DNA of 64,000 nt from Lentimicrobiaceae bacterium (lineage in GTDB: Bacteria; Bacteroidota; Bacteroidia; Bacteroidales; UBA4417), in the NCBI GenBank assembly GCA_033809755.1, contig JAPXLB010000003.1, forward strand, positions 68,961-132,960. Reading direction: 5' to 3'. Every line of letters starts with the position of its first letter. The stretch's first letter is position 1. The notes beneath the pieces are model-generated. The model made no database searches. It was not told the DNA's origin and worked only from the letters and a program-made list of their open reading frames with translations. The position numbers and the translations under genes are program-made. This document shows, piece by piece, positions 38,335 through 57,967 of this stretch.

Positions 38335-39375
38335 TTAAAACGCTTCATTTATATTTGAAATTCCTGCTTCTAATAATAAAGTTGCAAATTGAATTCCATT
38401 TACTAATTGAACTTTGTAATTTTTTGCCAACTCTTCACAATCAATTGAGTAACTATCAGCCGAAGAAATCACCCACGCAATTTTTGAAAAACCGTCATCC
38501 ATACTGCTATCTTTATATTCTTTGTATTCATTGATTTGTTCCAAAGCCCAAGAATTTGTTTCACCGTCGTGAAATTTTGCCTGAACATAAATTATTGTTT
38601 TTATTGGTTCAAAAGTTGCAATTATATCTGCATCTCCGCTTTTATCACTTTCGTTTTTAGCGGGAATATATACTTTTGATGCTCCAATTTTTCTAAAATA
38701 CCATTGAATTAATAACTCAAATTTGTCTGGGTTTAATTGACTTTTAATAATATCTAATACTTCGTTTTTTGCAGTTTCGATAATTAAACTATATAAATTT
38801 ATTGGTTTTTTGTTGTTATATGCTGTTATTGCAGTTTTTATACTTTGCTCCAAATCTGATATACAAGCATTTGTATTCTGTATTTTCATTCTTGCAGTCA
38901 AAGCATTATCTGCGTAATCATATCGAGAAATATTTGTTGCTATCGGCTTAACTCGTCTAAAAAACCCTAAATCAATATGATTTTCATTGTCAGGTTTAAT
39001 TCGATATAAACAATTATTGTCATCTTTGACAATAGAATTATCCCACCAGTCTTTTAGATTTTTAACATCTAATTCTACACTTGTAATTATTTCGTCATCA
39101 ATAATTTCATATATGGAAAATACTCCTGAACCTGGCACTAAAATATAATCTCCTTTCTCCATTTCGGAAATAAATCGCCACAAGTTATATCTTGTTCTTG
39201 GTCTATTTCCCCAAGTTTTATCAAAATAATTTTCAAACTCGTCCCAATTTCCACTACATTTTTCAATAAATTGAGGTTCTGAAAAATCCGAATATCCAAT
39301 TGATATTAATCCTTTATCCAATAATGGATATGCTAATTCAGCATGATGAGAAATCCTATGAAGCCAATAATTCAT
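38335..39375 (-). CDS. Mrr-type (PD-(D/E)xK) restriction endonuclease domain with an unassigned N-terminal domain (island gene 3)
   Basis: The C-terminal FELLIQWYFRKIGA...SGDADIIATF...IIYVQAKF matches the Mrr catalytic core (D...QxK). The ~180-aa N-terminal domain (MNYWLHRIS...KGDYILVPGSGVFSIYEI) may be a PUA/EVE-like reader. Confidence 0.7.
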   Translation of the reverse strand: MNYWLHRISHHAELAYPLLDKGLISIGYSDFSEPQFIEKCSGNWDEFENYFDKTWGNRPRTRYNLWRFISEMEKGDYILVPGSGVFSIYEIIDDEIITSVELDVKNLKDWWDNSIVKDDNNCLYRIKPDNENHIDLGFFRRVKPIATNISRYDYADNALTARMKIQNTNACISDLEQSIKTAITAYNNKKPINLYSLIIETAKNEVLDIIKSQLNPDKFELLIQWYFRKIGASKVYIPAKNESDKSGDADIIATFEPIKTIIYVQAKFHDGETNSWALEQINEYKEYKDSSMDDGFSKIAWVISSADSYSIDCEELAKNYKVQLVNGIQFATLLLEAGISNINEAF

Positions 39376-39411
39376 ATTATTTATTTATTTGATTATCATT
39401 ATTTTTTATTA

Positions 39412-39547
39412 CACATAACAGTTTTCAGCTATACGCAGGCAGGACTTTTTACCACTAAACTTCCTAAATAGTGCTGAACTTTAAATTTACTACTTTCCTG
39501 TCCTACGGAGCACGAAACTCCTACTAGCGTATAGCTGATGTTATGCC
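39412..39547 (-). repeat. 136-nt imperfect inverted repeat E2, integron attC-like
   Basis: Termini CACATAAC (39412-39419) and GTTATGCC (39540-39547). 12-bp stem TCAGCTATACGC/GCGTATAGCTGA (39425-39436/39527-39538) with asymmetric spacers (5 nt versus 1 nt). Branch hairpin GGAG-cacgaaa-CTCC. It ends 36 nt before the next ATG. Confidence 0.5.
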
Positions 39548-39610
39548 TTCGCACTTCTTTTTTAATCGTGTCAGCTTTTGTCATTTAACATCTATTTTGG
39601 CACATAGGAA

Positions 39611-42600
39611 TTAATATTCCAATCTGTTTCTTTCTGCTTCTTCGTCCATTCGTTTTGCATCTGCTAAATAACCTTGCTGCATTCGTTTAAATATCTCAGC
39701 AACATTAGGGTATTTATTTTTAAAACCATTTGATAATTTCTCAAAGTAGGCGGCTTTTCCTCTTTCAATATCTCCACCATCAAAAGCACCTCTAGTGGAC
39801 ATACCTCGTTTATTAAACATGGCAGATGAATAACCTCCTTTCAATTCATCTGTGTTGATTTCTTCAATAATTTGAAATATTTTTTCTTCTGGCCAAAAAT
39901 TACTGTTTTCAGGATACTGTGCTAAAATTTTACCAATCTCATTGTCGGCAGCTTCTAGTCTACTTACATTTTCTGCTAAAAATCTTGTTTTTGTAACCCA
40001 ATTTTTCAATATCGTTTCATCTATAAAATTATCCTCTTTCATACCTGGAATTTTTTTCCATGAATGAAGCAGATGGTAGGCTTGTTTTGCTCTATTTTGG
40101 ATAGCTTCGTCAGAAATACCTTCTCGTTCTTTTTCCAATAATGTTTTGTCTTTTGGAATGTAAATACACTTTAAAACCTCAATAAAAAAATCAGGGTTGT
40201 TTGCCAATTCTTCTTCTAAAATCTTAGGGCTTCTCCTTGCCCCGTATGAATCTAATATTGGAAGATAAAGCCACTCCAAATGAATAAGGGTTGATTTTTC
40301 AATATCTGTACGCTTGTCAAGTTCTTCAAAAATTCGTTCAATTTCATAACCTATGAAACGTGGCGTTTCACTTGCTTCCTCTGTCGCTGCTTTTTTCAAC
40401 ATCTCTGAAAGCAGATTACTTGAAATTACGTTTGCTAAATGTGAAGCTATATCTATTGCAGAAAAGAATCTTTTGTATTTCAAAAGCATTTCAATTCCAA
40501 TTGTTTTTTCTTCATCGGTAATATGATAAAAATGTGGGTTGATGTTTTGCCAATATTCATTTTGTATTTCTTCATCTAATGAAGCTACATAATTCCATAA
40601 TTGTTGATTTTGATTTAGTGGAATTAGAACATTAGAAAGTGCTTTATTGCTAAACTTCTTTTCTTGTAATTCTTTGAATAATGATTTTATCCAATCAAAG
40701 TTTTCAATGATTGATTTACGATAGATAAAGTTGTGAGCAAAACCAATAAGATTTTTATCGTCATACAAACATTCACAAACTGTAATAACTTCTTCTTTAT
40801 TTGTAATTATGCCAGCTAAAGCACCACCTAAAAGCCAAAACTCTTTAACTTGTTTTCGTAATTCTAAGGTTGCGTTTAAGCCTAATTCTTGAAGAAAAAC
40901 AGTCACTGCTGTTTTTCTTGCTTCATCAATACGCTTTTGTTGTTGATCGTACAGTTCACCTGACTTATTAAGTTCGTATTTAAAGCCTTCTGGAAACTTA
41001 GGCCAATGTTCATTGAAAAGCCAAATGTATTTGTGGATGGTGTCTGTTGGTTGAAGTTTGTTATACAAATTTTCCAACCGTACCAACTCGGATTCTGGTA
41101 AAGCCCAATCGGTATCAGGATGAGACCTGTGATGATTTAAAATTCCCCTTATTGTTTCCCAAGTTGAAAATTTTTCCTGTTTGATATTTGGGTAAACTTC
41201 ATCAGCCCAATCTAAAACTCTTTTTCTGTCTTTAGGAGAAAGATTGGGTATTTCTTTTATGAGTTGAGAAAATTTTTCTTCATCATTATCAAAAAGGTTT
41301 ATAAGCATTTCTATTACTGATGAATGCGTATTCCATATTTCTTTATATGTGTATGTAAGGTTAGTGTTCTTGTCAAACATTCGCCAACGCATTTTATGTG
41401 TAGGATGAGCAATCCCGTGATGGTCAGGAAGCATTCTTATTAAAAGATTCCAACCCAATTCTTTTTCTTTTTCAGTAACGAATTTTAGAATTTCCATTCT
41501 TTCATCAAAAGATGCAAGAGTTTGAAAATGCCACGGTTTAAAAATTTCTGTAACGCTATTCAATGGTCTGTTTGACAAACTACCTCCTGGGTCAAGTCTT
41601 GAAAGTTTTAGCAGAATCAAACTTACATCTCTTAAATATTCTGGCAACCAAGCTAAATTTTCAAGTGCCCACAACAATCCTGTGTGATGACTTGTTTTGT
41701 GCAAAAAACCATCTTCCTCTTTGAACATATCCATTATTTCGGGCTGTTTTTTTGCTAAAGAATTTTTTACAGCTTTGAGAAAACTTTCAGGTGACGCTTC
41801 TGAAATAAGTGGCAATTCGTTGTCAACGGAAATCCAGATTTCTCCACTTGCGTTATAAAGTAAATCAAAAATAATATTATCAACCCAGCTTTGAGGATTA
41901 TCAAGATTGGGGATTTTCACATCATTTAATAGTCCAATTAAAATTAAAGATTGTATTAGCCCTTCCCTAGACCAATTAGAGTATTTGTGTTTTTTGTTGA
42001 AATAAGCCGCAAAACTGTTTTTTTCTTCGGGTTCAATGACTGGATTTCCATTCTTAAACGCCATTGAAAAACATTCTTTAATATTTTGAAAATCTTTTGT
42101 TGTAAGTTGATAGGAAAGATTTGTCCATAAATCTAATGGCGAAGTTAATCGCCAAGTTTTTCCGATTTGTATGATTGGTGATTCTTCAAAATTTCTCCAT
42201 TTGTTAAGTGTTACCAAATAGTCGGAATACTTTTGTTCAGAAAGTTTTTCAATTAGTTCAATATCGCCAACAAAAGTTTCATTCCATCTCCCTAATAAAA
42301 GTGCGGGTATTATCTCACGAATGTTTTCTTTTTCAATCCATTTTGCTTTGTAATAAGGAAAGCCTAGTAGTTTTTTAAGAATAGTAATATTTCGCCCTGA
42401 TTCTTTAGATAATTTTTCTGCATATTCTCTTGATATACCGCTTTCAATTAACGATTTTATTTGCCCGTCCCTATCTATTGTTGGCAGTGTGATAATTTCT
42501 TGATTGAAATTGTCATCTGCACCGAGAGGAACTAATACGTGGTTTCCTTTTGATACAGCTAAGTAAAGAGGTTGCGCTTCATCAAATCTTGGAATGAGAT

Positions 42601-43408
42601 TTAAAGTAGAGGATACATTGTTTCTTACTATTCCACGAAAATTACCTTCTGTATCTATTATTAGTGCTTTAGAAAAAAATCTGTCAGCCTCTTCAGGAGG
42701 AAACGTTTTTGCTGATGCAATAATGAAAGCAATTGCTTCATTTTTTGTAGAAGCTTTAATTCCTTTAATTGTAGGTTCTCCTTGTAATGCTGACAACAAT
42801 AAGTCCTTTTCATATTCTCTGCCTGCAATTATACTTTCAGGTGAAAGAATTAATCCTTTTGGCCCGATTGACCATTCTTCCCAAAATTCATCAGCAGTCA
42901 TTATTCCATCAAATGGATATGTTCCAACTCCATCTTGCGAAGCAAACCAACGTGAAACTGATTGTGCATTATCAAGCCATTGTTCTAAGTCCATTGAATC
43001 ATATACTTTAACATCTTTCCAATGATTTTCGGCTTTTTTTGCTGCAATCCATTCGTCTTTTTTTGTCCAAAGTCTGGGTGTTACAAATATAAAAACAGAA
43101 TCGCTAGGTGTAAAACCTATTGGATTCTTTTTTCTTTTATCATAATCATCATCAGCTTTTCCTTTACAATCAGACGAAGTACCAAACTCCCACAAAGAAG
43201 TTCCTTGAGGTACATAAGCCGTTTCGGTTTCACAAATGACAATTCCATCCCAACCTCCGATATAGGTCGCACTACCTGAAGGAAGATTTGCTTTTGTGCT
43301 TGCAGGCGTTGTTGCTCTTACTAATCTTGAAATTAAATAAGGCAAAACAGCCTTTGAAAAGGTTGTGTCTGCCCATCTTTCGAGATTATTTCTGGTAACA
43401 AGTTTCAT
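39611..43408 (-). CDS. 1265-aa protein of unknown function (island gene 2)
   Basis: Long uninterrupted ORF with no Walker A or helicase motif. The ~170-aa N-terminal globular region (GGWDGIV...SLWEFGTSSDCKGK) is followed by more than 1000 aa that look helical-repeat-like. Antisense ORFs inside it were rejected. Confidence 0.8.
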   Translation of the reverse strand: MKLVTRNNLERWADTTFSKAVLPYLISRLVRATTPASTKANLPSGSATYIGGWDGIVICETETAYVPQGTSLWEFGTSSDCKGKADDDYDKRKKNPIGFTPSDSVFIFVTPRLWTKKDEWIAAKKAENHWKDVKVYDSMDLEQWLDNAQSVSRWFASQDGVGTYPFDGIMTADEFWEEWSIGPKGLILSPESIIAGREYEKDLLLSALQGEPTIKGIKASTKNEAIAFIIASAKTFPPEEADRFFSKALIIDTEGNFRGIVRNNVSSTLNLIPRFDEAQPLYLAVSKGNHVLVPLGADDNFNQEIITLPTIDRDGQIKSLIESGISREYAEKLSKESGRNITILKKLLGFPYYKAKWIEKENIREIIPALLLGRWNETFVGDIELIEKLSEQKYSDYLVTLNKWRNFEESPIIQIGKTWRLTSPLDLWTNLSYQLTTKDFQNIKECFSMAFKNGNPVIEPEEKNSFAAYFNKKHKYSNWSREGLIQSLILIGLLNDVKIPNLDNPQSWVDNIIFDLLYNASGEIWISVDNELPLISEASPESFLKAVKNSLAKKQPEIMDMFKEEDGFLHKTSHHTGLLWALENLAWLPEYLRDVSLILLKLSRLDPGGSLSNRPLNSVTEIFKPWHFQTLASFDERMEILKFVTEKEKELGWNLLIRMLPDHHGIAHPTHKMRWRMFDKNTNLTYTYKEIWNTHSSVIEMLINLFDNDEEKFSQLIKEIPNLSPKDRKRVLDWADEVYPNIKQEKFSTWETIRGILNHHRSHPDTDWALPESELVRLENLYNKLQPTDTIHKYIWLFNEHWPKFPEGFKYELNKSGELYDQQQKRIDEARKTAVTVFLQELGLNATLELRKQVKEFWLLGGALAGIITNKEEVITVCECLYDDKNLIGFAHNFIYRKSIIENFDWIKSLFKELQEKKFSNKALSNVLIPLNQNQQLWNYVASLDEEIQNEYWQNINPHFYHITDEEKTIGIEMLLKYKRFFSAIDIASHLANVISSNLLSEMLKKAATEEASETPRFIGYEIERIFEELDKRTDIEKSTLIHLEWLYLPILDSYGARRSPKILEEELANNPDFFIEVLKCIYIPKDKTLLEKEREGISDEAIQNRAKQAYHLLHSWKKIPGMKEDNFIDETILKNWVTKTRFLAENVSRLEAADNEIGKILAQYPENSNFWPEEKIFQIIEEINTDELKGGYSSAMFNKRGMSTRGAFDGGDIERGKAAYFEKLSNGFKNKYPNVAEIFKRMQQGYLADAKRMDEEAERNRLEY

Positions 43409-43475
43409 ATTTTAATTGCGATTTCTTTTGTTTCTCTTTATGCTTCTTGTCGGTGGTATCTTCTTTTAGAGTGAG

Positions 43476-43672
43476 GCATAACGCCCCATATACGTAACAA
43501 ATGTACAACATTCGTACATATAAAACACAATTTGAATAACAAAAATACATTTATTTATCCAACAAACAAATTTTATAACACCAAATATTATTTTTGTACC
43601 TAATGGCAAAATCCGACAAGTAAAAGAAGCGTTTTATAAATAAGCTTTAAGGGTATATCTCTTTTGAAGTAT
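43476..43672 (-). promoter_or_regulatory. Island upstream module, copy A
   Basis: Aligns by eye with 44878-45048 over ~170 nt. On the - strand it contains TATTTTTG (a TAnnTTTG-type box) and the ATGTAC-gaatgtt-GTACAT hairpin. On the + strand it has TATTTTTG followed by the mini-ORF ATGGCAAAATCCGACAAGTAA. Confidence 0.55.
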
Positions 43673-43767
43673 AAGCCTGCTAACAGACGACAATACGCAA
43701 CGTAAGGATTTTGCGGTGACGAACCAATTATCAGTAACAAACCTTGCTGGCTAGCAATGCGTTTAAC

Positions 43768-44814
43768 CTACCAATAACACTCCCATGGTGTATAACAGCA
43801 CCTTATGCCCAGCTTTTTTATTATCCTTCCGTTATAATAAGTCAAATAATTTTCGTCTGCAATTGATTTGTTCTTGATTTTCCAATAATTTTTGAGTCTA
43901 TTTCCAAGTGAAGAAACGGCAACTTTACATCGAATATTACTCATTTCCTTTCCCCAATGAGTTCCATGATGTGGTAATATCACCATATCCCAATATGAAT
44001 TGTTTGAAACAGATAAATTATATTCCAATGCATTGTCTATCTCATTTGCCTCCAAATCACCTAAAAACAATAGCTGATTATTACAATATGCTAATGATAT
44101 TCTATTTGCAATTCCTCTTAATTCATCATTTAAATTTTTAATATGCTTCAATCTTTCATTACGCTGTTCAGAATCAATTAAATTTATTGTTCCTTTCTCT
44201 GTTTGCTCCGACTCAAAATTAAATTCTTCTTCTTTATCTTGATAGAAAGAATTATCTAATGTCTTATATATTTTTTGTAAAATGTCATCTTTCTGTAATT
44301 CTTCATTAAAAAGCTTTATTACTTTTTCTACCGATTCGGTAAAGGAATTGTCTATCTCTCTTGGAGGCCAAATTACTTGAAATGATTTCTGACCCAAATT
44401 AATAAAATCACCCTGGGAAACAGGAATAACATTGAACCTTCTATTATAGCTGATTTTTGAGATTAAATTAATAAAATCATACTCCATACTTCCTGAATCA
44501 TTACCCAACAAGTAAAAATTAACCGTCTGGAAAGCTTTTAGCAATGCAGACCTATTACTAAATTTTGGAAGTCTAGGGAAATAGACGGTATCTATATGGG
44601 CACACATCCCCGAATGTGCAATATTCACTAAACCACTATAATGGTCAGAATGGAAATGTGACAACACGAACGAAAATGGAAAGGAATGACAAAATCTATA
44701 TAATAATCCCTTATTCACGTCGTGCTGGGAACCAAAGTCAGTTACAAGTCTTTCATTTTTTAATCTAAAATCAACAAACAGACCATCTCCAATGTCATTT
44801 ATTATTACAATCAT
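43768..44814 (-). CDS. Metallo-beta-lactamase-fold hydrolase, ComEC-like subtype (island gene 1)
   Basis: HxHxDH motif SHFHSDHYSG, then FLGDLE and ILPHHGTHWG, which resembles the ComEC/Rec2 MBL domain. There are no membrane segments. Confidence 0.75.
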   Translation of the reverse strand: MIVIINDIGDGLFVDFRLKNERLVTDFGSQHDVNKGLLYRFCHSFPFSFVLSHFHSDHYSGLVNIAHSGMCAHIDTVYFPRLPKFSNRSALLKAFQTVNFYLLGNDSGSMEYDFINLISKISYNRRFNVIPVSQGDFINLGQKSFQVIWPPREIDNSFTESVEKVIKLFNEELQKDDILQKIYKTLDNSFYQDKEEEFNFESEQTEKGTINLIDSEQRNERLKHIKNLNDELRGIANRISLAYCNNQLLFLGDLEANEIDNALEYNLSVSNNSYWDMVILPHHGTHWGKEMSNIRCKVAVSSLGNRLKNYWKIKNKSIADENYLTYYNGRIIKKLGIRCCYTPWECYW

Positions 44815-45622: not shown

Positions 45623-46039
45623 CTATTCACCAATCACTATCTCATGCGTAATTTTCATTACCTGCTTGTAAACATGATTTACCCCACAATACTTTTCTAA
45701 CGATAAGTTTACGGCTTTTTCAACTTTTTCCTTATCAATATTATCGCCTTTCAGCTTGTATATGATGTGCATAGCAGTGTAGTGCTTTGGATGTTCTTCG
45801 GTCATTTCGGCTTCAATAACTACGTCAAATTCGTCGAATTGTACTTTCATTTTGTTTAAAATAGATACAACGTCCATTCCTGTACATCCAGCCAATGCTG
45901 TTATCATCAACGGTTTTGGAAGTACACCGCTCTCTTCTCCGCCACTTTCAACCTTCGCATCCATAATTACATCGTGATTGTTAACTTTCGATAGGAATTT
46001 CATCTTTCCTTGCCATTTAGTTTCAATAGTCTGTTTCAT
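45623..46039 (-). CDS. OsmC/Ohr-family peroxiredoxin-like protein
   Basis: PKPLMITALAGCTGMDVVSIL and LEKYCGV. I prefer the start MKQTIE (46039) over the hydrophobic 19-codon extension. Confidence 0.8.
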   Translation of the reverse strand: MKQTIETKWQGKMKFLSKVNNHDVIMDAKVESGGEESGVLPKPLMITALAGCTGMDVVSILNKMKVQFDEFDVVIEAEMTEEHPKHYTAMHIIYKLKGDNIDKEKVEKAVNLSLEKYCGVNHVYKQVMKITHEIVIGE

Positions 46040-46197
46040 AATTAGTAATATTAGTATGTTAGTACAAAAGTATAAAATTGTTTTGCAAAAGTACAAAATA
46101 TCTATATATCTATATGTTTTTATATTTAGATTTGAAACTTTTTAAAATTTTTCCAATTATCAAACTTTGCAGGTTATAAAAATGTTATATATTTGCA

Positions 46198-46355
46198 AGC
46201 GAAAATTGGTTCTACAAAAGATTAAAAGGGAATGCCGTGAGAATCGGCAACAGTACCCGCTGCTGTGAGTTTTAAAAGCATTTTTATTAAGCCACTGTAT
46301 TTTTATGGGAAGGCAAAAATGTACGAAACAAGTCAGAAGACCTACCATTTTCAAA
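46198..46355 (+). promoter_or_regulatory. Cobalamin (B12) riboswitch
   Basis: AAGGGAATGCCGTGAGAATCGGCA, CCCGCTGCTGTGA, GCCACTG, GGGAAGGC and the B12 box AGTCAGAAGACCTACC (46331-46346). P1 is aaaattggt/accatttt. Promoter TTTG 46166-46169 and TATATTTG 46188-46195. Confidence 0.85.
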
Positions 46356-46487
46356 TTACATAATACGACTTCCGGGATTAGAGGTCTGAGATGTGTCGAT
46401 ATTTCAGTATATTACCTCCATCCATTTCGTATTTTGTTATAAATAGATATTGAAGTATTTATTAATGAACAATTAAAATATAACAAA

Positions 46488-49400
46488 ATGAGAAAATTTA
46501 ATCTGTTGCTATTAGCATTAATTGCTATTATTCAAACAAGTGTAGCTCAAACAAAATTGAGCGGAGAGTACATAATTAGCCAAAACACAGCACATAATCC
46601 TGATTATACAAGTTTTCAGGCAGCGATTGACGATGCTACAACCAAAGGTGTACAAGGTATAGTTACCTTTAAGGTTATGCCTGGCACTTATGAAGAGTTT
46701 GTATCTATTACGACTATTAACGACCTAAGTGCTGAAAATCAGATTGTTTTTAAAGGTATAGCTCCCGACAACCAACAAGTTGTTTTAACCGGAAATGCAG
46801 GATATTTAGAAAAACCAATAATTAAATTTTCGGCGGTAAGGTACATTACTTTTAAAAACATGAAAATAGTTACCACATCAAGTAATTATGGGAATTTAGT
46901 TGTGTTTGAAAATAAAGTTAATAACTTGACCTTCGACAGTATATATTTTCATGGTATTGATGTTACTGCTAATACATTTAACAACGACAAACATATTATT
47001 TTCGATAATAGCAAAAGTGCCGATTACACCGATTCGGATTTACATTTTTTAAATTCGCAATTTGTAAATGGTAACATGGCTTTTTACTTACAAGGCAATA
47101 ACGCTATAACTCCGCCCGACAGCAACTTAGTAATTGAAAACTGCACGTTTACAAACCAGTACACAAAAACTATTTATGCCACTTATCAAAAAAACGCTTC
47201 CATCAAAAATAATAAAATCAGCAACAACGAAGATATAAAAAACGGATTTCAAGCTATTGATTTGTTTCGGGTTTACGACAATAGCATAATTGAAAACAAT
47301 ATAATCAACATTGATTTTTCGACAAAAGACGGAACAGGTATTGAAGTTCGTCCTGCTATTGGCTCTGCCACAGAACCTGTTATTATAAGAAATAATATGG
47401 TTAAAATTACTTCCAATTCCAACCTTAATTATGCTTTCAAACTTTCTAACAGTAGTAGCGAAAATGTAATTCTGGCTAACAATACTGCACTTATGCAAGG
47501 CACAGGAAGCGGTGCTGTTGTTTACATTGATGCCGTCATCCCAAACTTTAAAATGTATAATAATCTGTTTGTAAGCGAAAATAGTGGATATATTGTCAGG
47601 CATCAGAAAACGGATATAAGTAATTTTACTTCCAATTTTAACAGATGTCTTTTCAACGGTAACTATTACGGCAGAATCGGCTCAAACGAATATGCTACTT
47701 TACAGGAATGGCAAACGGCTTCCGGTAACGATAATAACACAGAAATTATAAGTACAAATCCTTTTATTTCGAATACCAATCTGCATATAAGTAATAGCAC
47801 AAACCTAACTGTTGCAAATCCTTTGAGCTACGTAACTCACGATATCGACAACGAACTGCGTTCGACAACGACACCGTGTGCAGGTGCTGACGAAATCGTT
47901 TCGGGTGGAAATCTTCCACCATACGTTGCAAACCCTATCAGCGACGTTATTTTTGAAAATGCAAACGACAGCACAATTATTTCGTTAAACAATACTTTTG
48001 CCGACCCCGACGACCCAGATGAGGATATTGTAATAAGTATTGCGTCGAATTCCAATCCGCAATTGGTTGAAGCTACGTTGCTTGCAGGAAACAGAGATTT
48101 GAAAGTCAAACGAATAAGTCCTGATGCAGGCACTTCAACTATAGTTTTATCGGCAAATAGCAATGGACAAACTGTTGAAACTTCTTTTAACGTAATATGC
48201 AATGTTCCGGCAGTTGCTCCCGTTATTGCCAATCAGGTTGACCCTGTGAATTTTACCACGTATCCCGAAACTAAAACCATTAATCTTACCAATGCTTTTG
48301 CAGTTCCGGGCAACCCCAATGCCAACATGCAACTGACAATTCAAAGTTCTACTAACACTCATGTTCAGTCTTCTCTTTCTGCAAATATATTGACCTTACA
48401 GAGAATCAATCCTACAGCTTTCACTAATCACGAAGTTGTAATACGTTGTACGTACAACAGCTTATTTGTTGATATGACAATACTAATGTCGGGCACTGAA
48501 GCTACTGCAGCACATGGTACAGCAACTTTTGAAGATATTACACTGAACAGTAATGGCACATGGACGCCGCCACAAACAGGTGATAATGAAATGATTAGCG
48601 ACACATGGAGCTTTTATAACCATTATCATAATTCGTATTGGGGTGGATTTACCGCTTCAAACAGGACAGATACGACATTAAGCGGAATGGCTGCTCAATA
48701 TACTGCTATTGCAGGCGAAGGCGTAAACGAATCAGAGCAATATGCAGTCGGCTTTACAATGGGTTATCCTGCTGATGTAAAACCCGTTGATAATAATCCG
48801 GACGTTGTTTCGGGCTGCTACGTAACCAACAATTTATGGGCATACAGAGCAATTTTGGAAGGTGATGGTTATGGTCCTGCTTTCGGTGGAAACTCCGGAA
48901 ATGACCCCGACTACTTCAGAGTTTGGGCTGTTGGAAAAAGAGAAAATAACACATATACCGACACATTGTACTACTACCTTGCCGACTACCGTTCGCCAAA
49001 CAACTCGGAAGATTATGTTGTTAACACTTGGGAATGGTTTGACCTTTCTACTATGGGAATTATAAAATCCATACGCTTTGGGTTGCAATCGTCAAGGAGT
49101 AATGCGTGGGGAATGACTACACCTGCTTATTTTTGCATGGACGACTTCAACGGCATCCCTCCCACTACACCAAACCAACCGCCTTACGTTGCTAACAGCA
49201 TCGACGATGTGCTATTTACAACTTATCCTTGTTACGATACATTAGACTTAACTAATACCTTTGCCGACCCCGACGATCCAAGCGACAGTATTGTTTTAAG
49301 CGTTGGTGGTAATACTAATCCGCAACTTGTTCAGGCAACTATTGATGAAAAAACGCTGTATTTGGAAAGACTTTCAAGCGAAAATGATACGGTTCTCATT

Positions 49401-50309
49401 ACCATAAATGCCGAAAGCAATGGACAATACGCCAACACGTCGTTTAATGTGTTTTGTACCGATCCGCAAAACCTTCCGCCTTATGTGTTGAATCCTATTC
49501 CTGATGTTACTTTTGAGTACTATCCCGACTACGATACATTGGATTTATCGAACACATTTGCCGACCCTGACGACCCAAGCGACAGTATTGTGTTAAGCGT
49601 TACAAATAATACAAATCCTGAGCTTGTTCAAACCATTCTGGAAGATAAAACATTGTATTTAGAACGACTTAGTGCCGAAGTAGGCGACGTGGTTATCACC
49701 ATAAATGCCAATAGTGCCGGACAAGAAGTAGCAACCGTATTTACAGTTCATTGCTTGCCTATACCCAATCCTGAGCCGTACTTGGCAAATCCGATTGAGC
49801 ACATTTACATATACGATTATCCTTTCGATACTACGTTCAGCCTGATTGGAACCGTCTCCGACCCTGATGTTTGCGACTCTCTGATAGTATATACAGTCAT
49901 AAATAACAGCTCGCCTAACGATATTGAAGCCGTGATTGACAACAATAGCAATATGACTATTTCCAGATTAAATCCCAATCATGCCGAAGTTGTTGTAACC
50001 GTCAGAGCTACCAGCAACGACCAATTTATCGATTTCGAGATTGATATCACAAACGTATTGTATGAAAACGTGTATTCGTATGATAATTCAACAGCAATAT
50101 ATCCAAATCCTACTTCAAAATACATTAAAATTGAGAGCTCGAAAGATTTTTCTGGATATATGATATTAAATTCTAATGGAAATGTTATTAAGAACAGCGT
50201 TCTTGATAATAAAATAATAGATGTCAGTAATTTAATGCCTGGAAATTACATACTTATAATTATTGATAACAATAGAAAACATACAACACATAAGTTTATC
50301 AAAATATAA
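46488..50309 (+). CDS. 1273-aa secreted multidomain protein with a T9SS C-terminal sorting domain; B12-riboswitch controlled
   Basis: Signal peptide, then a beta-helix-like N-terminal third, then five ~95-aa repeats (PPYVANPI...NTFADPDDP). A central ~210-aa domain (ATFEDITL..YWGGFTASN..PAYFCMDDF, nt ~48520-49150) follows. The C-terminal IYPNPTSKYIKIE...LMPGNYILII is a Por-type secretion tail. Confidence 0.8.
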   Translation: MRKFNLLLLALIAIIQTSVAQTKLSGEYIISQNTAHNPDYTSFQAAIDDATTKGVQGIVTFKVMPGTYEEFVSITTINDLSAENQIVFKGIAPDNQQVVLTGNAGYLEKPIIKFSAVRYITFKNMKIVTTSSNYGNLVVFENKVNNLTFDSIYFHGIDVTANTFNNDKHIIFDNSKSADYTDSDLHFLNSQFVNGNMAFYLQGNNAITPPDSNLVIENCTFTNQYTKTIYATYQKNASIKNNKISNNEDIKNGFQAIDLFRVYDNSIIENNIINIDFSTKDGTGIEVRPAIGSATEPVIIRNNMVKITSNSNLNYAFKLSNSSSENVILANNTALMQGTGSGAVVYIDAVIPNFKMYNNLFVSENSGYIVRHQKTDISNFTSNFNRCLFNGNYYGRIGSNEYATLQEWQTASGNDNNTEIISTNPFISNTNLHISNSTNLTVANPLSYVTHDIDNELRSTTTPCAGADEIVSGGNLPPYVANPISDVIFENANDSTIISLNNTFADPDDPDEDIVISIASNSNPQLVEATLLAGNRDLKVKRISPDAGTSTIVLSANSNGQTVETSFNVICNVPAVAPVIANQVDPVNFTTYPETKTINLTNAFAVPGNPNANMQLTIQSSTNTHVQSSLSANILTLQRINPTAFTNHEVVIRCTYNSLFVDMTILMSGTEATAAHGTATFEDITLNSNGTWTPPQTGDNEMISDTWSFYNHYHNSYWGGFTASNRTDTTLSGMAAQYTAIAGEGVNESEQYAVGFTMGYPADVKPVDNNPDVVSGCYVTNNLWAYRAILEGDGYGPAFGGNSGNDPDYFRVWAVGKRENNTYTDTLYYYLADYRSPNNSEDYVVNTWEWFDLSTMGIIKSIRFGLQSSRSNAWGMTTPAYFCMDDFNGIPPTTPNQPPYVANSIDDVLFTTYPCYDTLDLTNTFADPDDPSDSIVLSVGGNTNPQLVQATIDEKTLYLERLSSENDTVLITINAESNGQYANTSFNVFCTDPQNLPPYVLNPIPDVTFEYYPDYDTLDLSNTFADPDDPSDSIVLSVTNNTNPELVQTILEDKTLYLERLSAEVGDVVITINANSAGQEVATVFTVHCLPIPNPEPYLANPIEHIYIYDYPFDTTFSLIGTVSDPDVCDSLIVYTVINNSSPNDIEAVIDNNSNMTISRLNPNHAEVVVTVRATSNDQFIDFEIDITNVLYENVYSYDNSTAIYPNPTSKYIKIESSKDFSGYMILNSNGNVIKNSVLDNKIIDVSNLMPGNYILIIIDNNRKHTTHKFIKI

Positions 50310-50402: not shown

Positions 50403-50493
50403 TATTACGAAATTTTAATTAAATCGAGAACAAAATGTCAAATTTCATTTGTACATTTGCACAATAAATATGTAACAATAAAAACAACAAAAT

Positions 50494-56277: not shown

Positions 56278-56694
56278 ATGAAAACAACGGAAGAAATAGG
56301 AAATATTTTATCGGAAAAAGGTTTAAAAGTTACACCTCAAAGGATTAGCGTGTATAAAGCAATTTGCAATTTACATACGCATCCCACAACCGATGATATT
56401 ATTGAAGAAGTGAAAAAAGACAATGCGTATATCTCTAATGCAACGGTTTACAATGTGTTGGATAGCTTTGTCAAGAAAGGTATAGTTGAAAGAATAAAGA
56501 CCGATAAGGACAAAATGAGATATGATTTAATGCTTAAAAAGCATCACCATATCTACTGTTCTAAAAGCATGGAAATAATGGATTATTATTCGGAAGAGAT
56601 TGACAAATACCTTGAAAAATATTTTACCGACAATCCGATAAAAAATTTTAACATAAAAAGCATACAACTCCAAATTAACGGTGAATATAAATGA
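56278..56694 (+). CDS. Fur-family transcriptional regulator (PerR-like by context)
   Basis: 138 aa. LKVTPQRISVYKAI winged helix and the HHHIYC metal-site region. It sits upstream of dps and a peroxiredoxin. Confidence 0.8.
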   Translation: MKTTEEIGNILSEKGLKVTPQRISVYKAICNLHTHPTTDDIIEEVKKDNAYISNATVYNVLDSFVKKGIVERIKTDKDKMRYDLMLKKHHHIYCSKSMEIMDYYSEEIDKYLEKYFTDNPIKNFNIKSIQLQINGEYK

Positions 56695-56733
56695 AATTAG
56701 AAATCAAACATTAATCTTTAAAAAACAATAACC

Positions 56734-57201
56734 ATGAAAAATCAAATTAATTTAAAACAAGATTACTCCAAACAAGTAATAGATAAACTAAACACTTATT
56801 TAAGCAATGTGCAAATTGCATATCAAAACACACGCGGTTACCACTGGAACATAGTAGGTAGAAAATTCTTTGTATTGCACCAAAAATACGAAGAGTGGTA
56901 CGACCAATTGAATGATATGGCTGACGAAATCGCAGAACGTATATTAATGTTAGGCGGCACACCTGTACACACATATTCAAAATACATACAATTGGCGACA
57001 ATTAAAGAAAAAGAAAATATCAGTTCGTGCGAAGCAACAATAAAAGAAGTAATTTCTGAAATACTCACACTACTCGACCAAGAAAGAGAAATTATATCGT
57101 TTGCTTCCGAAAATGGCGACGATGGAACTGTAGATATGCTTACAGGATACATTTCTGCTCAAGAAAAGCTCATTTGGATGTACAATGCCATGATTAAATA
57201 A
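56734..57201 (+). CDS. dps: Dps-family ferritin-like protein
   Basis: 155 aa. NTRGYHWNIVGRKFFVLHQKYEEWYDQLNDMADEIAERI carries the ferroxidase-site residues. Confidence 0.85.
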   Translation: MKNQINLKQDYSKQVIDKLNTYLSNVQIAYQNTRGYHWNIVGRKFFVLHQKYEEWYDQLNDMADEIAERILMLGGTPVHTYSKYIQLATIKEKENISSCEATIKEVISEILTLLDQEREIISFASENGDDGTVDMLTGYISAQEKLIWMYNAMIK

Positions 57202-57253
57202 AAAAATAAATAGAAATTAAATTAAACAATAACCAATAAAAATTTTTAAAACA

Positions 57254-57967
57254 ATGGAAGAAATTAAAATGAACGAAACTATTGCAATGCCACGTATTGG
57301 CGATAAAGCTCCTGAATTTACAGCTGTTACCACACAAGGTACAATAAATTTCCCGTCTGATTACAAAGGACACTGGACTATTTTATTTAGCCACCCTGCA
57401 GACTTTACACCGGTTTGTACTACCGAATTTATGACCTTTGCTACAATGGCAGAAGATTTTGAAAAAGCTAATTGTAAACTTGTAGGTCTTTCGGTTGACG
57501 GACTTCATAGCCACATTGCTTGGCTTAGAACCATCAAAGAAAAAATCGATTACAAAGGAATGAAAAATGTTGAAGTGAAATTCCCTTTGATTGATGATAT
57601 TAGCATGAATGTAGCTAGTAAGTACGGTATGATTCAACCTAAAACATCTGCAACTTCTGCTGTTCGTGCGGTATTTTTTATCGACCCGAAAGGTATTATC
57701 AGAGCTATGATGTACTACCCACAAAGCACAGGACGTAATTTCCCCGAATTGTACAGAGTTCTTATTGCACTTCAAACCACCGATGAGTTTGGTGTTGCAA
57801 CTCCAGCCGATTGGCAACCCGGCGACGAAGTTATAGTTCCTCCTGCAAATTCATGCGGAATAGCACAAGAAAGAACCGAAAAACCCGGCGATATGAAATG
57901 CTACGATTGGTTCTTCTGTACGAAGGAATTGGATAAAGAAACTATTATGAAAAAGTTAATTAAGTAG
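57254..57967 (+). CDS. Peroxiredoxin (Prx6/1-Cys-like)
   Basis: LFSHPADFTPVCTTEF active site. 237 aa. Confidence 0.9.
   Translation: MEEIKMNETIAMPRIGDKAPEFTAVTTQGTINFPSDYKGHWTILFSHPADFTPVCTTEFMTFATMAEDFEKANCKLVGLSVDGLHSHIAWLRTIKEKIDYKGMKNVEVKFPLIDDISMNVASKYGMIQPKTSATSAVRAVFFIDPKGIIRAMMYYPQSTGRNFPELYRVLIALQTTDEFGVATPADWQPGDEVIVPPANSCGIAQERTEKPGDMKCYDWFFCTKELDKETIMKKLIK

Follow-up and report, generated by a model that had tools for sequence, protein, structure and literature searches.

A probable BtuJ-type corrinoid-capture protein with a type IX sorting domain and its own cobalamin riboswitch in uncultured Bacteroidales

Competition for cobamides shapes gut and rumen communities, and the molecular view of cobamide capture rests almost wholly on lipoproteins from Bacteroides that are encoded beside BtuB. 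Here we analyze a stretch of 64,000 nucleotides (nt) from a Lentimicrobiaceae bacterium (contig JAPXLB010000003.1, positions 68,961 to 132,960; "the window"), in which a cobalamin riboswitch precedes a gene for a protein of 1273 amino acids (aa) with a DUF4465 domain. DUF4465 is the BtuJ family; BtuJ confers fitness under B12 limitation, and in vitro, BtuJ1 hands B12 to BtuG2 and BtuH2, the products of a different locus (10.1101/2025.07.01.662609). Binding of B12 has been shown for eight divergent DUF4465 members, and one of these proteins, D5EK51, was solved with B12 (Clarke et al. 2026, PMC13398666). Two B12-binding tyrosines of BtuJ1 are conserved (PMC13398666): Y245 in the HI loop, which lies within GTPAYF or NTPAY and is retained in 97% of homologs, and Y146 in the DE helix. 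The family is described as more than 70% lipoproteins and the rest with periplasmic signals, with no mention of multi-domain forms or of the type IX secretion system (T9SS), and 40-55% of DUF4465 proteins family-wide are reported to be co-located with TonB-dependent barrels or plugs (PMC13398666).

We think it likely that the window encodes a BtuJ-type corrinoid-capture protein that is repressed by B12, is exported by the T9SS, and feeds a BtuG/BtuB system encoded elsewhere. A preliminary description of the window, made from the sequence, had proposed a corrinoid-capture candidate delivered by the T9SS. This proposal is supported by the protein's membership in DUF4465, by its C-terminal sorting domain (CTD), and by a riboswitch that is retained in at least 70 of 71 related loci. 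The parts that it had named are also present: a complete B12 riboswitch behind a TTTG-type promoter, a signal peptide, five immunoglobulin (Ig)-like repeats of ~95 aa, a central domain of the DUF4465 type, and a Por-type CTD, in a lone gene without an adjacent btuB or btuFCD; the gene lies between those for OsmC and GcvP. The features of the unit, all on the + strand, are:

46166-46195 (+): Bacteroidota-type promoter motif, with TTTG (-33), an 18-nt spacer, and TATATTTG (-7); a pattern match directly 5' of the aptamer

46190-46363 (+): cobalamin riboswitch aptamer (RF00174), 113.3 bits over model positions 1-189 of 189, E = 1.3e-27, where the gathering score is 31.5

46367-46386 (+): candidate P13/L13 hairpin GACUUC[CGGGAUUA]GAGGUC, with loop CGGG (46373-46376) complementary to the aptamer loop CCCG (46256-46259)

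46375-46487 (+): remaining leader, with an alternative hairpin (46375-46423), a U-rich tract, and an AU-rich hairpin with the AUG inside it; minimum free energy (MFE) fold of -35.3 kcal/mol, z = -3.1

46488-50309 (+): coding sequence from the list of open reading frames (ORFs), 1273 aa, NCBI MGB4655388.1, "DUF4465 domain-containing protein [Bacteroidales bacterium]"

46488-46547 (+): Sec signal peptide of the signal peptidase I (SPI) type, MRKFNLLLLALIAIIQTSVA, which lacks a lipobox cysteine; assigned by inspection

46548-47909 (+): right-handed parallel beta-helix (aa 21 to ~420) and a conserved linker motif, DIDxxxR..PCAGADE (aa 452-469); from an AlphaFold 2 (AF2) model

47910-48503 (+): Ig-like repeats R1 (aa 475-571) and R2 (aa 578-672), from a phmmer self-search; R2 is a beta-sandwich with a predicted local distance difference test (pLDDT) score of 80-92

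48525-49163 (+): DUF4465/BtuJ-type jelly-roll (aa 680-892; PF14717), a predicted corrinoid-binding module with HI loop TTPAYF (Y881) and DE helix NNLWAY (W784, Y786)

49173-50051 (+): Ig-like repeats R3 (aa 896-990), R4 (aa 995-1089), and R5 (aa 1094-1188), from the phmmer self-search; pLDDT of R3 ~90

50097-50306 (+): T9SS type-A CTD (aa 1204-1273), from PF18962 and TIGR04183

50369-50404 (+): 15-bp hairpin 3' of the stop codon, a likely transcription stop before gcvP; -23.7 kcal/mol, z = -7.56, and none of 200 shuffles folds as well

Across the whole window, an Rfam scan returned two matches above the gathering score, a tRNA and the cobalamin aptamer, which is the only riboswitch. With a covariance model derived from the family (R1), the aptamer scores 163.5 bits. 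Its B12 box is AGTCAGAAGACCTACC (46331-46346), its core motifs include GCCACTG (46291-46297) and GGGAAGGC (46307-46314), and the loop CCCG is a candidate for L5. The -7 element of the promoter adjoins the aptamer; in an alignment of nine related riboswitches, all nine have its TTTGCA unchanged at their 5' edge. The broader pattern TTTG-N17-21-TANNTTTG matches 14 times in the window, versus 5.0 times expected from shuffles.

The central domain matches PF14717 over aa 715-887 with 170.2 bits (the cut-off is 25), covering profile positions 4-176 of 176, and by sequence it is clearly a member of this family. Its sequence matches in the PDB include B12-bound structures: 9fct and 9qpm (BtuJ1), 9hmu (D5EK51), and 9i2l (BtuJ2). 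The same structures were the top fold matches of an AF2 model of aa 574-992 (9HMU, 9QPM/9FCT, and 9I2L, with E from 1e-11 to 7e-8 and TMt of 0.40-0.63; for 9HMU, 9QPM, and 9FCT, E is 1e-11 and TMt 0.55-0.63), which supports an augmented beta-jelly-roll fold. In the phmmer alignment, Y881 of TTPAYF aligns to the HI-loop tyrosine of BtuJ1, Y245. TP.YF is present in 119 of 120 homologs and TNN.W.Y in 117 of 120. The conserved half of the pocket is under selection, to judge from the sequences, and there is a strong case that the window protein would bind B12.

From its N-terminus, the protein consists of a signal peptide, a beta-helix, two Ig-like repeats, the DUF4465 domain, three more Ig-like repeats, and the CTD. 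The N-terminus, MRKFNLLLLALIAIIQTSVAQ, has no cysteine, and a lipobox-like pattern was found in just 2 of 120 family members. The CTD matches Por_Secre_tail (PF18962) over aa 1204-1271 (33.7 bits, with a cut-off of 27) and NCBIfam's TIGR04183 (34 bits versus 23). No other CTD protein is encoded in the 64-kb window; others do occur in related loci. The five repeats of ~95 aa were found by phmmer with one repeat as the seed; self-BLAST returned none, and no Pfam family matched them at E <= 1. In the model of aa 574-992 (overall pLDDT 75), the repeats are beta-sandwiches (pLDDT 80-94), and they match tandem arrays of Ig or fibronectin type III (FN3) domains in the PDB at the level of the fold.

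This architecture is widespread. A word-indexed search returned 272 clusters at E <= 1e-5, and the best 120 of these are nearly all 1050-1290 aa long with both PF14717 and PF18962. These 120 share a constant core of the beta-helix, two repeats, DUF4465, zero to three repeats, and the CTD; one member has DUF4465 in tandem. Three repeats after DUF4465, as in the window protein, were found in only 2 of the 120, and most of these orthologs have one. A scan of one genome per species found relatives in at least 255 species-level genomes, and we kept 79 loci from the 255 relatives. The hosts of these loci are nearly all uncultured Bacteroidales, represented by metagenome-assembled genomes (MAGs) from the rumen or gut of cattle, sheep, deer, yak, buffalo, or human; several are labeled Candidatus Limimorpha.

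The riboswitch is conserved along with the gene. When we ran Rfam on six related loci, five had a riboswitch directly upstream of the gene and the sixth had one ~2 kb upstream. A covariance model built from nine related aptamers and run on all of the loci gave 108 matches. Among the 71 loci with usable upstream sequence, the riboswitch lies within ~250 nt of the gene in 60 and 1.6-2.6 kb upstream in 10; one locus has none. In most of the ten loci with a distant riboswitch, two genes lie between it and the DUF4465 gene, and in the rest, the intervening ORFs are fragmented. The pairing is kept across 40-56% protein identity. Because the riboswitch is so consistently retained, the family is tied to B12 status independently of its domain annotation. 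A short form of 616 aa, with a signal peptide, DUF4465, repeats, and a CTD but no beta-helix, occurs in 18 loci and likewise has a riboswitch upstream (for instance, L064:9935-11782 (+)), which implies that DUF4465 and the CTD are the conserved riboswitch-linked core.

What the gene is not linked to is a transporter. Among the 21 window ORFs that we scanned with Pfam, there is no TonB-dependent receptor, BtuG, BtuF, or BtuCD. For the relatives, every ORF of 100 aa or more in the 79 loci was assigned to a cluster; among the recurrent and the large neighbor clusters, Pfam identified no btuB, btuG, or btuFCD linked to the gene. TonB_dep_Rec and Plug were found in only 3 of 54 representatives of the remaining large-ORF clusters, and none of the three is behind a riboswitch. 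More generally, no riboswitch in the related loci is followed by a receptor-sized gene. This near-absence across loci contrasts with the published 40-55%, and the uncoupling from the transporter is therefore a trait of the whole family rather than a peculiarity of one contig.

The uncoupling would also suit another fate for the protein, which we consider unlikely: after PorU cuts the CTD, it might be released as a diffusible "corrinophore" that scavenges or strips cobamides and is then recaptured, or that sequesters B12 from competitors. Cargo with a type-A CTD may be released, and in B. thetaiotaomicron, vesicles that carry BtuJ already take its capture beyond the cell. Also, the long multi-domain form and the variable number of repeats do not argue for a fixed docking geometry. 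However, an Ig-like stalk beside a CTD is typical of T9SS proteins that are displayed on the surface, and a released nanomolar binder would need a dedicated receptor, none of which is linked. Sequence does not separate released from anchored cargo. The capture function that we propose would hold for a protein displayed on the cell or released from it, and we consider it probable that the protein stays on the cell.

The N-terminal third had been described as beta-helix-like. The fold stands: an AF2 model of aa 21-474, with ten homologs as input, is a right-handed beta-helix with a pLDDT of 86.4 and a predicted template modeling score (pTM) of 0.85, and at the level of this model we consider the fold to be established. 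Pfam's Beta_helix (PF13229) was less clear, as it stayed below its threshold on the window protein (18 versus 25.9 bits), with precomputed matches for some homologs. Foldseek returned 51 matches in the PDB for this model at E <= 1e-3, and the top 50 that were listed are all beta-helix proteins. They include GH136 lacto-N-biosidases, GH87 enzymes, PL6 lyases, alginate epimerases, the pneumococcal adhesin PfbA, and phage tailspikes.

Given these matches, the beta-helix could be the functional head of a glycan-directed enzyme or adhesin, with DUF4465 as an accessory domain akin to a carbohydrate-binding module (CBM) and the riboswitch coupling a B12-independent process to B12. Jelly-roll folds are common among CBMs, many polar residues of the N-terminal domain are invariant, and some of the genes under cobalamin riboswitches have no part in uptake (a CoA-transferase in the relatives is a case in point). 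But the fold matches are generic (best E 7e-6, TM ~0.5, 9-15% identity) and there was no match to a family-level hidden Markov model (HMM). Furthermore, the 616-aa paralogous form is driven by a riboswitch without having a beta-helix, all eight of the DUF4465 proteins that have been tested bind B12, and the pocket motif is strongly conserved. We find a glycan-directed function quite improbable as the main role of the protein.

As to how the riboswitch would act, T[TC]CGGGA lies 2-8 nt past the 3' end of the aptamer model in 106 of 107 riboswitches of the related loci (L004-L082), outside the RF00174 model. This element is probably the L13 loop of a kissing-loop expression platform. In cobalamin riboswitches, a kissing loop between L5 and L13 is stabilized by the ligand and occludes the translation-initiation region, and by analogy with this established architecture, the CCCG/CGGG layout is as would be expected for L5 and L13. 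The candidate P13/L13 hairpin has a folding energy of -6.6 kcal/mol and by itself does not reach significance. Both loops are invariant and hence show no covariation, so the kissing loop is our inference here. In many orthologs, the AUG is only 27-29 nt past the aptamer, and in the examples that we inspected, the 3' arm of the hairpin ends a few nt before the AUG. The folds in the remaining leader of the window may have a regulatory role. A simple scan for terminators found no canonical intrinsic terminator in this leader, and we do not regard the hairpin and U-tract of the MFE fold as an established terminator. Being turned off by B12 is the rule for this class of riboswitch; we assume the same logic for the DUF4465 gene, by analogy, and it would fit a gene for capture.

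The GC content is 35% for the window and also for its riboswitch, versus 42-58% for the orthologous riboswitches of other Bacteroidales MAGs; the organism is a low-GC outlier of its clade. It is very improbable that the riboswitch or the gene is dead in this lineage and their association merely inherited: the leader is 125 nt long where 27-29 nt is common in orthologs, and the protein has two more repeats than the typical form, but the aptamer scores as high as that of any ortholog, the ORF is intact over 1273 codons and keeps all of the family-invariant residues, and copies that are 97-100% identical recur on several independent assemblies.

If the gene does encode a surface-anchored capture protein, we propose that it works as follows. 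When intracellular cobalamin is low, the leader would be open and the DUF4465 gene expressed; when cobalamin occupies the aptamer, the CCCG/CGGG kissing loop would lock the expression platform and turn the gene off. The pre-protein would cross the inner membrane via Sec, and the T9SS would read the type-A CTD and move the protein across the outer membrane, where the mature form would probably be anchored on the cell surface. There, the DUF4465 jelly-roll would bind cobamides in its loop pocket, and the five Ig-like repeats would act as a stalk that holds the pocket off the surface. The beta-helix at the tip would be an accessory module, most plausibly for glycan binding. The cobamide would then be passed to a BtuG/BtuB system elsewhere in the genome, much as BtuJ1 serves BtuG2 and BtuH2 across loci in B. 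thetaiotaomicron.

Several points weigh against this proposal. In other Bacteroidota, cargo with a type-A CTD is either anchored or released. The recipient of the cobamides is hypothetical, as no btuB, btuG, or btuFCD was found among the genes scanned in the window or near the orthologs. The leader in the window is longer than in most orthologs, and control could be translational, transcriptional, or both. Our attempt to place the beta-helix in a CAZy-type family gave only the generic fold matches and no family-level HMM match. Within the AF2 model, the DUF4465 part is of moderate confidence (pLDDT of 36-87, depending on the block, with low-confidence loops). The DE-helix tyrosine of BtuJ1 (Y146) aligns to a tryptophan, W784 of NNLWAY, with Y786 two residues on. 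At this position, distant DUF4465 relatives mostly have tyrosine (149 domain instances, versus 17 with tryptophan, for the commonest types in a motif-based count made without an alignment), so we regard W784 as a lineage-specific aromatic substitution. The alignment with BtuJ1 is also poor in the N-terminal half of the pocket; variability in this part of the pocket is family-wide in DUF4465 (PMC13398666). Finally, the B12-binding experiments concern DUF4465 members other than the window protein and the T9SS types (PMC13398666; 10.1101/2025.07.01.662609).

Other genes recur near the orthologs. The most frequent neighbors are a CoA-transferase of the AcetylCoA_hydro type (438 aa; 49 of 79 loci) and a MarC membrane protein (~198 aa; 45 of 79); there are also FN3-rich giants (16 loci), an Asp-Al_Ex permease, an imelysin, and a di-heme oxidoreductase. 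A separate cobalamin riboswitch drives the pair of CoA-transferase and MarC (for instance, L022:7852-13186, L005:15113-17393(-), and L006:15858-16042(-)). In most of the ten loci with a distant riboswitch, the long DUF4465-T9SS gene comes third, after this pair. One possibility is that the B12-regulated CoA-transferase is a bypass for the route through the B12-dependent methylmalonyl-CoA mutase.

Further cobalamin riboswitches drive the FN3-rich giants, which are 1231-1943 aa long. Examples are at L033:11235(-), with a downstream ORF of 1341 aa; L018:17561(-), with 1943 aa; L047:15273(+), with 1576 aa; and L072:15531(-), with 1276 aa. Several of them end in a tail that resembles a T9SS CTD, and the one match to Por_Secre_tail was below the cut-off (22 versus 27 bits). 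We found no known B12-binding domain in these giants: Pfam identified only fn3, Ig_Rha78A_N, and the CTD, and a sequence search of the PDB returned only FN3 domains. They are candidates for new corrinoid-binding modules or for other T9SS cargo that is induced by B12 limitation.

A bolder version of the proposal, which we consider doubtful, is that the window protein is a targeting corrinoid trap, or the first protein "corrinophore," within a wider B12-limitation regulon of T9SS cargo that includes the FN3 giants. In that case, the beta-helix would bind a surface glycan of cobamide-producing neighbors, or the plant fiber or mucus that they inhabit, and DUF4465 on its Ig-like stalk would capture cobamides at their source. 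The regulon would operate in rumen and gut Bacteroidales, and the FN3 giants might hold new corrinoid-binding folds.

Beyond the orthologs, too, DUF4465 proteins with a T9SS signature or tandem domains are common. We compared the DUF4465 domain to 1.84 billion cluster representatives with phmmer and obtained 2775 matches at E <= 1e-3, including 1947 at E <= 1e-10. Of the best 150 matches, many are 500-3000 aa long and contain two to five DUF4465 stretches; for instance, P0122 has 5 stretches in 2569 aa. Among 147 new representatives (P0121-P0267), 79 have a CTD-like C-terminus, as judged by an HMM built from the window family, and about ten are lipoprotein-like. Giants of ~1500-2500 aa form a separate group, in which the N-termini are Planctomycetota-style (…LE.RRLLA…) and the T9SS CTD is absent. 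Pfam confirmed Por_Secre_tail in 50 of 80 representatives of up to 700 aa, which is not a family-wide proportion because the query was of the T9SS type and its own relatives are overrepresented in the sample.

Within the literature that we could search, T9SS is not mentioned in the papers on BtuJ or DUF4465, and no paper joins T9SS and BtuJ; type IX secretion, cobalamin, and a riboswitch come together only in a transcriptome study of Flavobacterium. Multivalent B12 traps with tandem DUF4465 domains are not described in the BtuJ/DUF4465 literature searched either. For the DUF4465 protein from Fluviicola that was tested in PMC13398666, neither the text nor the supplement gives the architecture.

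In the window itself, the DUF4465 gene is flanked by a divergent OsmC gene upstream (45623-46096 (-), immediately upstream of the riboswitch unit) and by the gene for the glycine dehydrogenase GcvP downstream. The hairpin past the stop codon has no adjacent U-tract and is likely a Bacteroidota-style terminator; a -7-like element, TACATTTG, lies 3' of the hairpin and 5' of gcvP (50451-50458). Because of this hairpin and the promoter-like element, we read the unit as monocistronic, as far as can be judged from sequence. On the same contig, precomputed Pfam matches indicate an oxidative-stress cluster at 56278-57967 (+), with a Fur-family regulator, ferritin, and AhpC/1-Cys peroxiredoxin. On the other side, at 38335-44814 (-), ORFs of 1265 aa (39611-43408) and 348 aa (43768-44814) have no Pfam match and no signal peptide, and they adjoin a gene that resembles a Mrr_cat restriction endonuclease (38335-39375); this region may be a defense island. 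We considered whether the 1265-aa ORF (39611-43408, -) might be kin to the riboswitch-driven FN3 giants, but it has no BLAST match and no signal peptide, so we consider it unrelated.

The unit in the window is not a new kind of system, because the fold, the ligand, and the riboswitch control have all been published for BtuJ. What is new in the window protein is its predicted export route and its giant modular architecture with an uncharacterized beta-helix; new, too, is that the gene has a riboswitch to itself and no transporter linked to it. The unit is less novel than the preliminary description implied: the T9SS-exported form is new, but B12 binding by DUF4465 had been published, and the gene is one of the orthologs from hundreds of species. 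The ~255 orthologous loci indicate that a large group of uncultured Bacteroidales puts the same B12-binding fold on a long, T9SS-exported scaffold, which points to the T9SS as a route of vitamin acquisition. Also, the T9SS and tandem DUF4465 forms among most of the nearest relatives correct the published view that the family consists of lipoproteins or periplasmic proteins. The window protein, the 616-aa form, and the FN3 giants are candidates for B12 capture in the rumen or for multivalent B12-binding scaffolds. For the field of B12 uptake, this is a useful extension and a correction to a family description, and not a surprise.

Among known systems, HmuY and HusA of Porphyromonas gingivalis offer a functional analogy only: they are extracytoplasmic tetrapyrrole binders that feed a TonB-dependent receptor. 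Unlike the window protein, to which they are not homologous, they are lipoproteins or secreted proteins that are encoded beside receptors and regulated by iron or heme, with no riboswitch. T9SS type-A cargo, such as the gingipains, resembles the window protein in having an N-terminal Sec signal, a modular passenger with Ig-like spacers, and a CTD of ~70 aa. In the literature searched, such cargo consists of proteases, glycanases, adhesins, and motility proteins, and cofactor-capture cargo under riboswitch control is not described.

The closest relatives are within DUF4465. D5EK51 from Coraliomargarita akajimensis (9HMU) is the best structural match to the modeled domain (E = 1e-11, TMt 0.62); D5EK51 and the other tested DUF4465 proteins have a single domain, and their B12 binding survives across phyla at ~20-30% identity. 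The preliminary description had likened the window protein to BtuG and BtuH. The analogy to B12 capture at the surface is supported, but the homolog is BtuJ and not BtuG or BtuH. BtuJ1 (BT1491) and BtuJ2 (BT1957) from Bacteroides thetaiotaomicron (9FCT, 9QPM, 9I2L) have PF14717, the augmented jelly-roll, and the HI-loop TPAYF tyrosine in common with the window protein, at ~27% identity and with the DE-helix tyrosine replaced by tryptophan in the window protein. Both kinds of protein have a cobalamin riboswitch, are extracytoplasmic (by prediction, for the window protein), and presumably carry out the first step of cobamide capture, which feeds BtuG/BtuB. BtuJ1 and BtuJ2 are single-domain lipoproteins of ~250 aa; they carry a signal peptidase II (SPII) signal and a lipoprotein export signal, and their genes belong to btuB/btuG/btuFCD operons. 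In contrast, the window protein has 1273 aa, an SPI signal, a T9SS type-A CTD, a beta-helix, and five Ig-like repeats, and its gene stands alone behind its own riboswitch.

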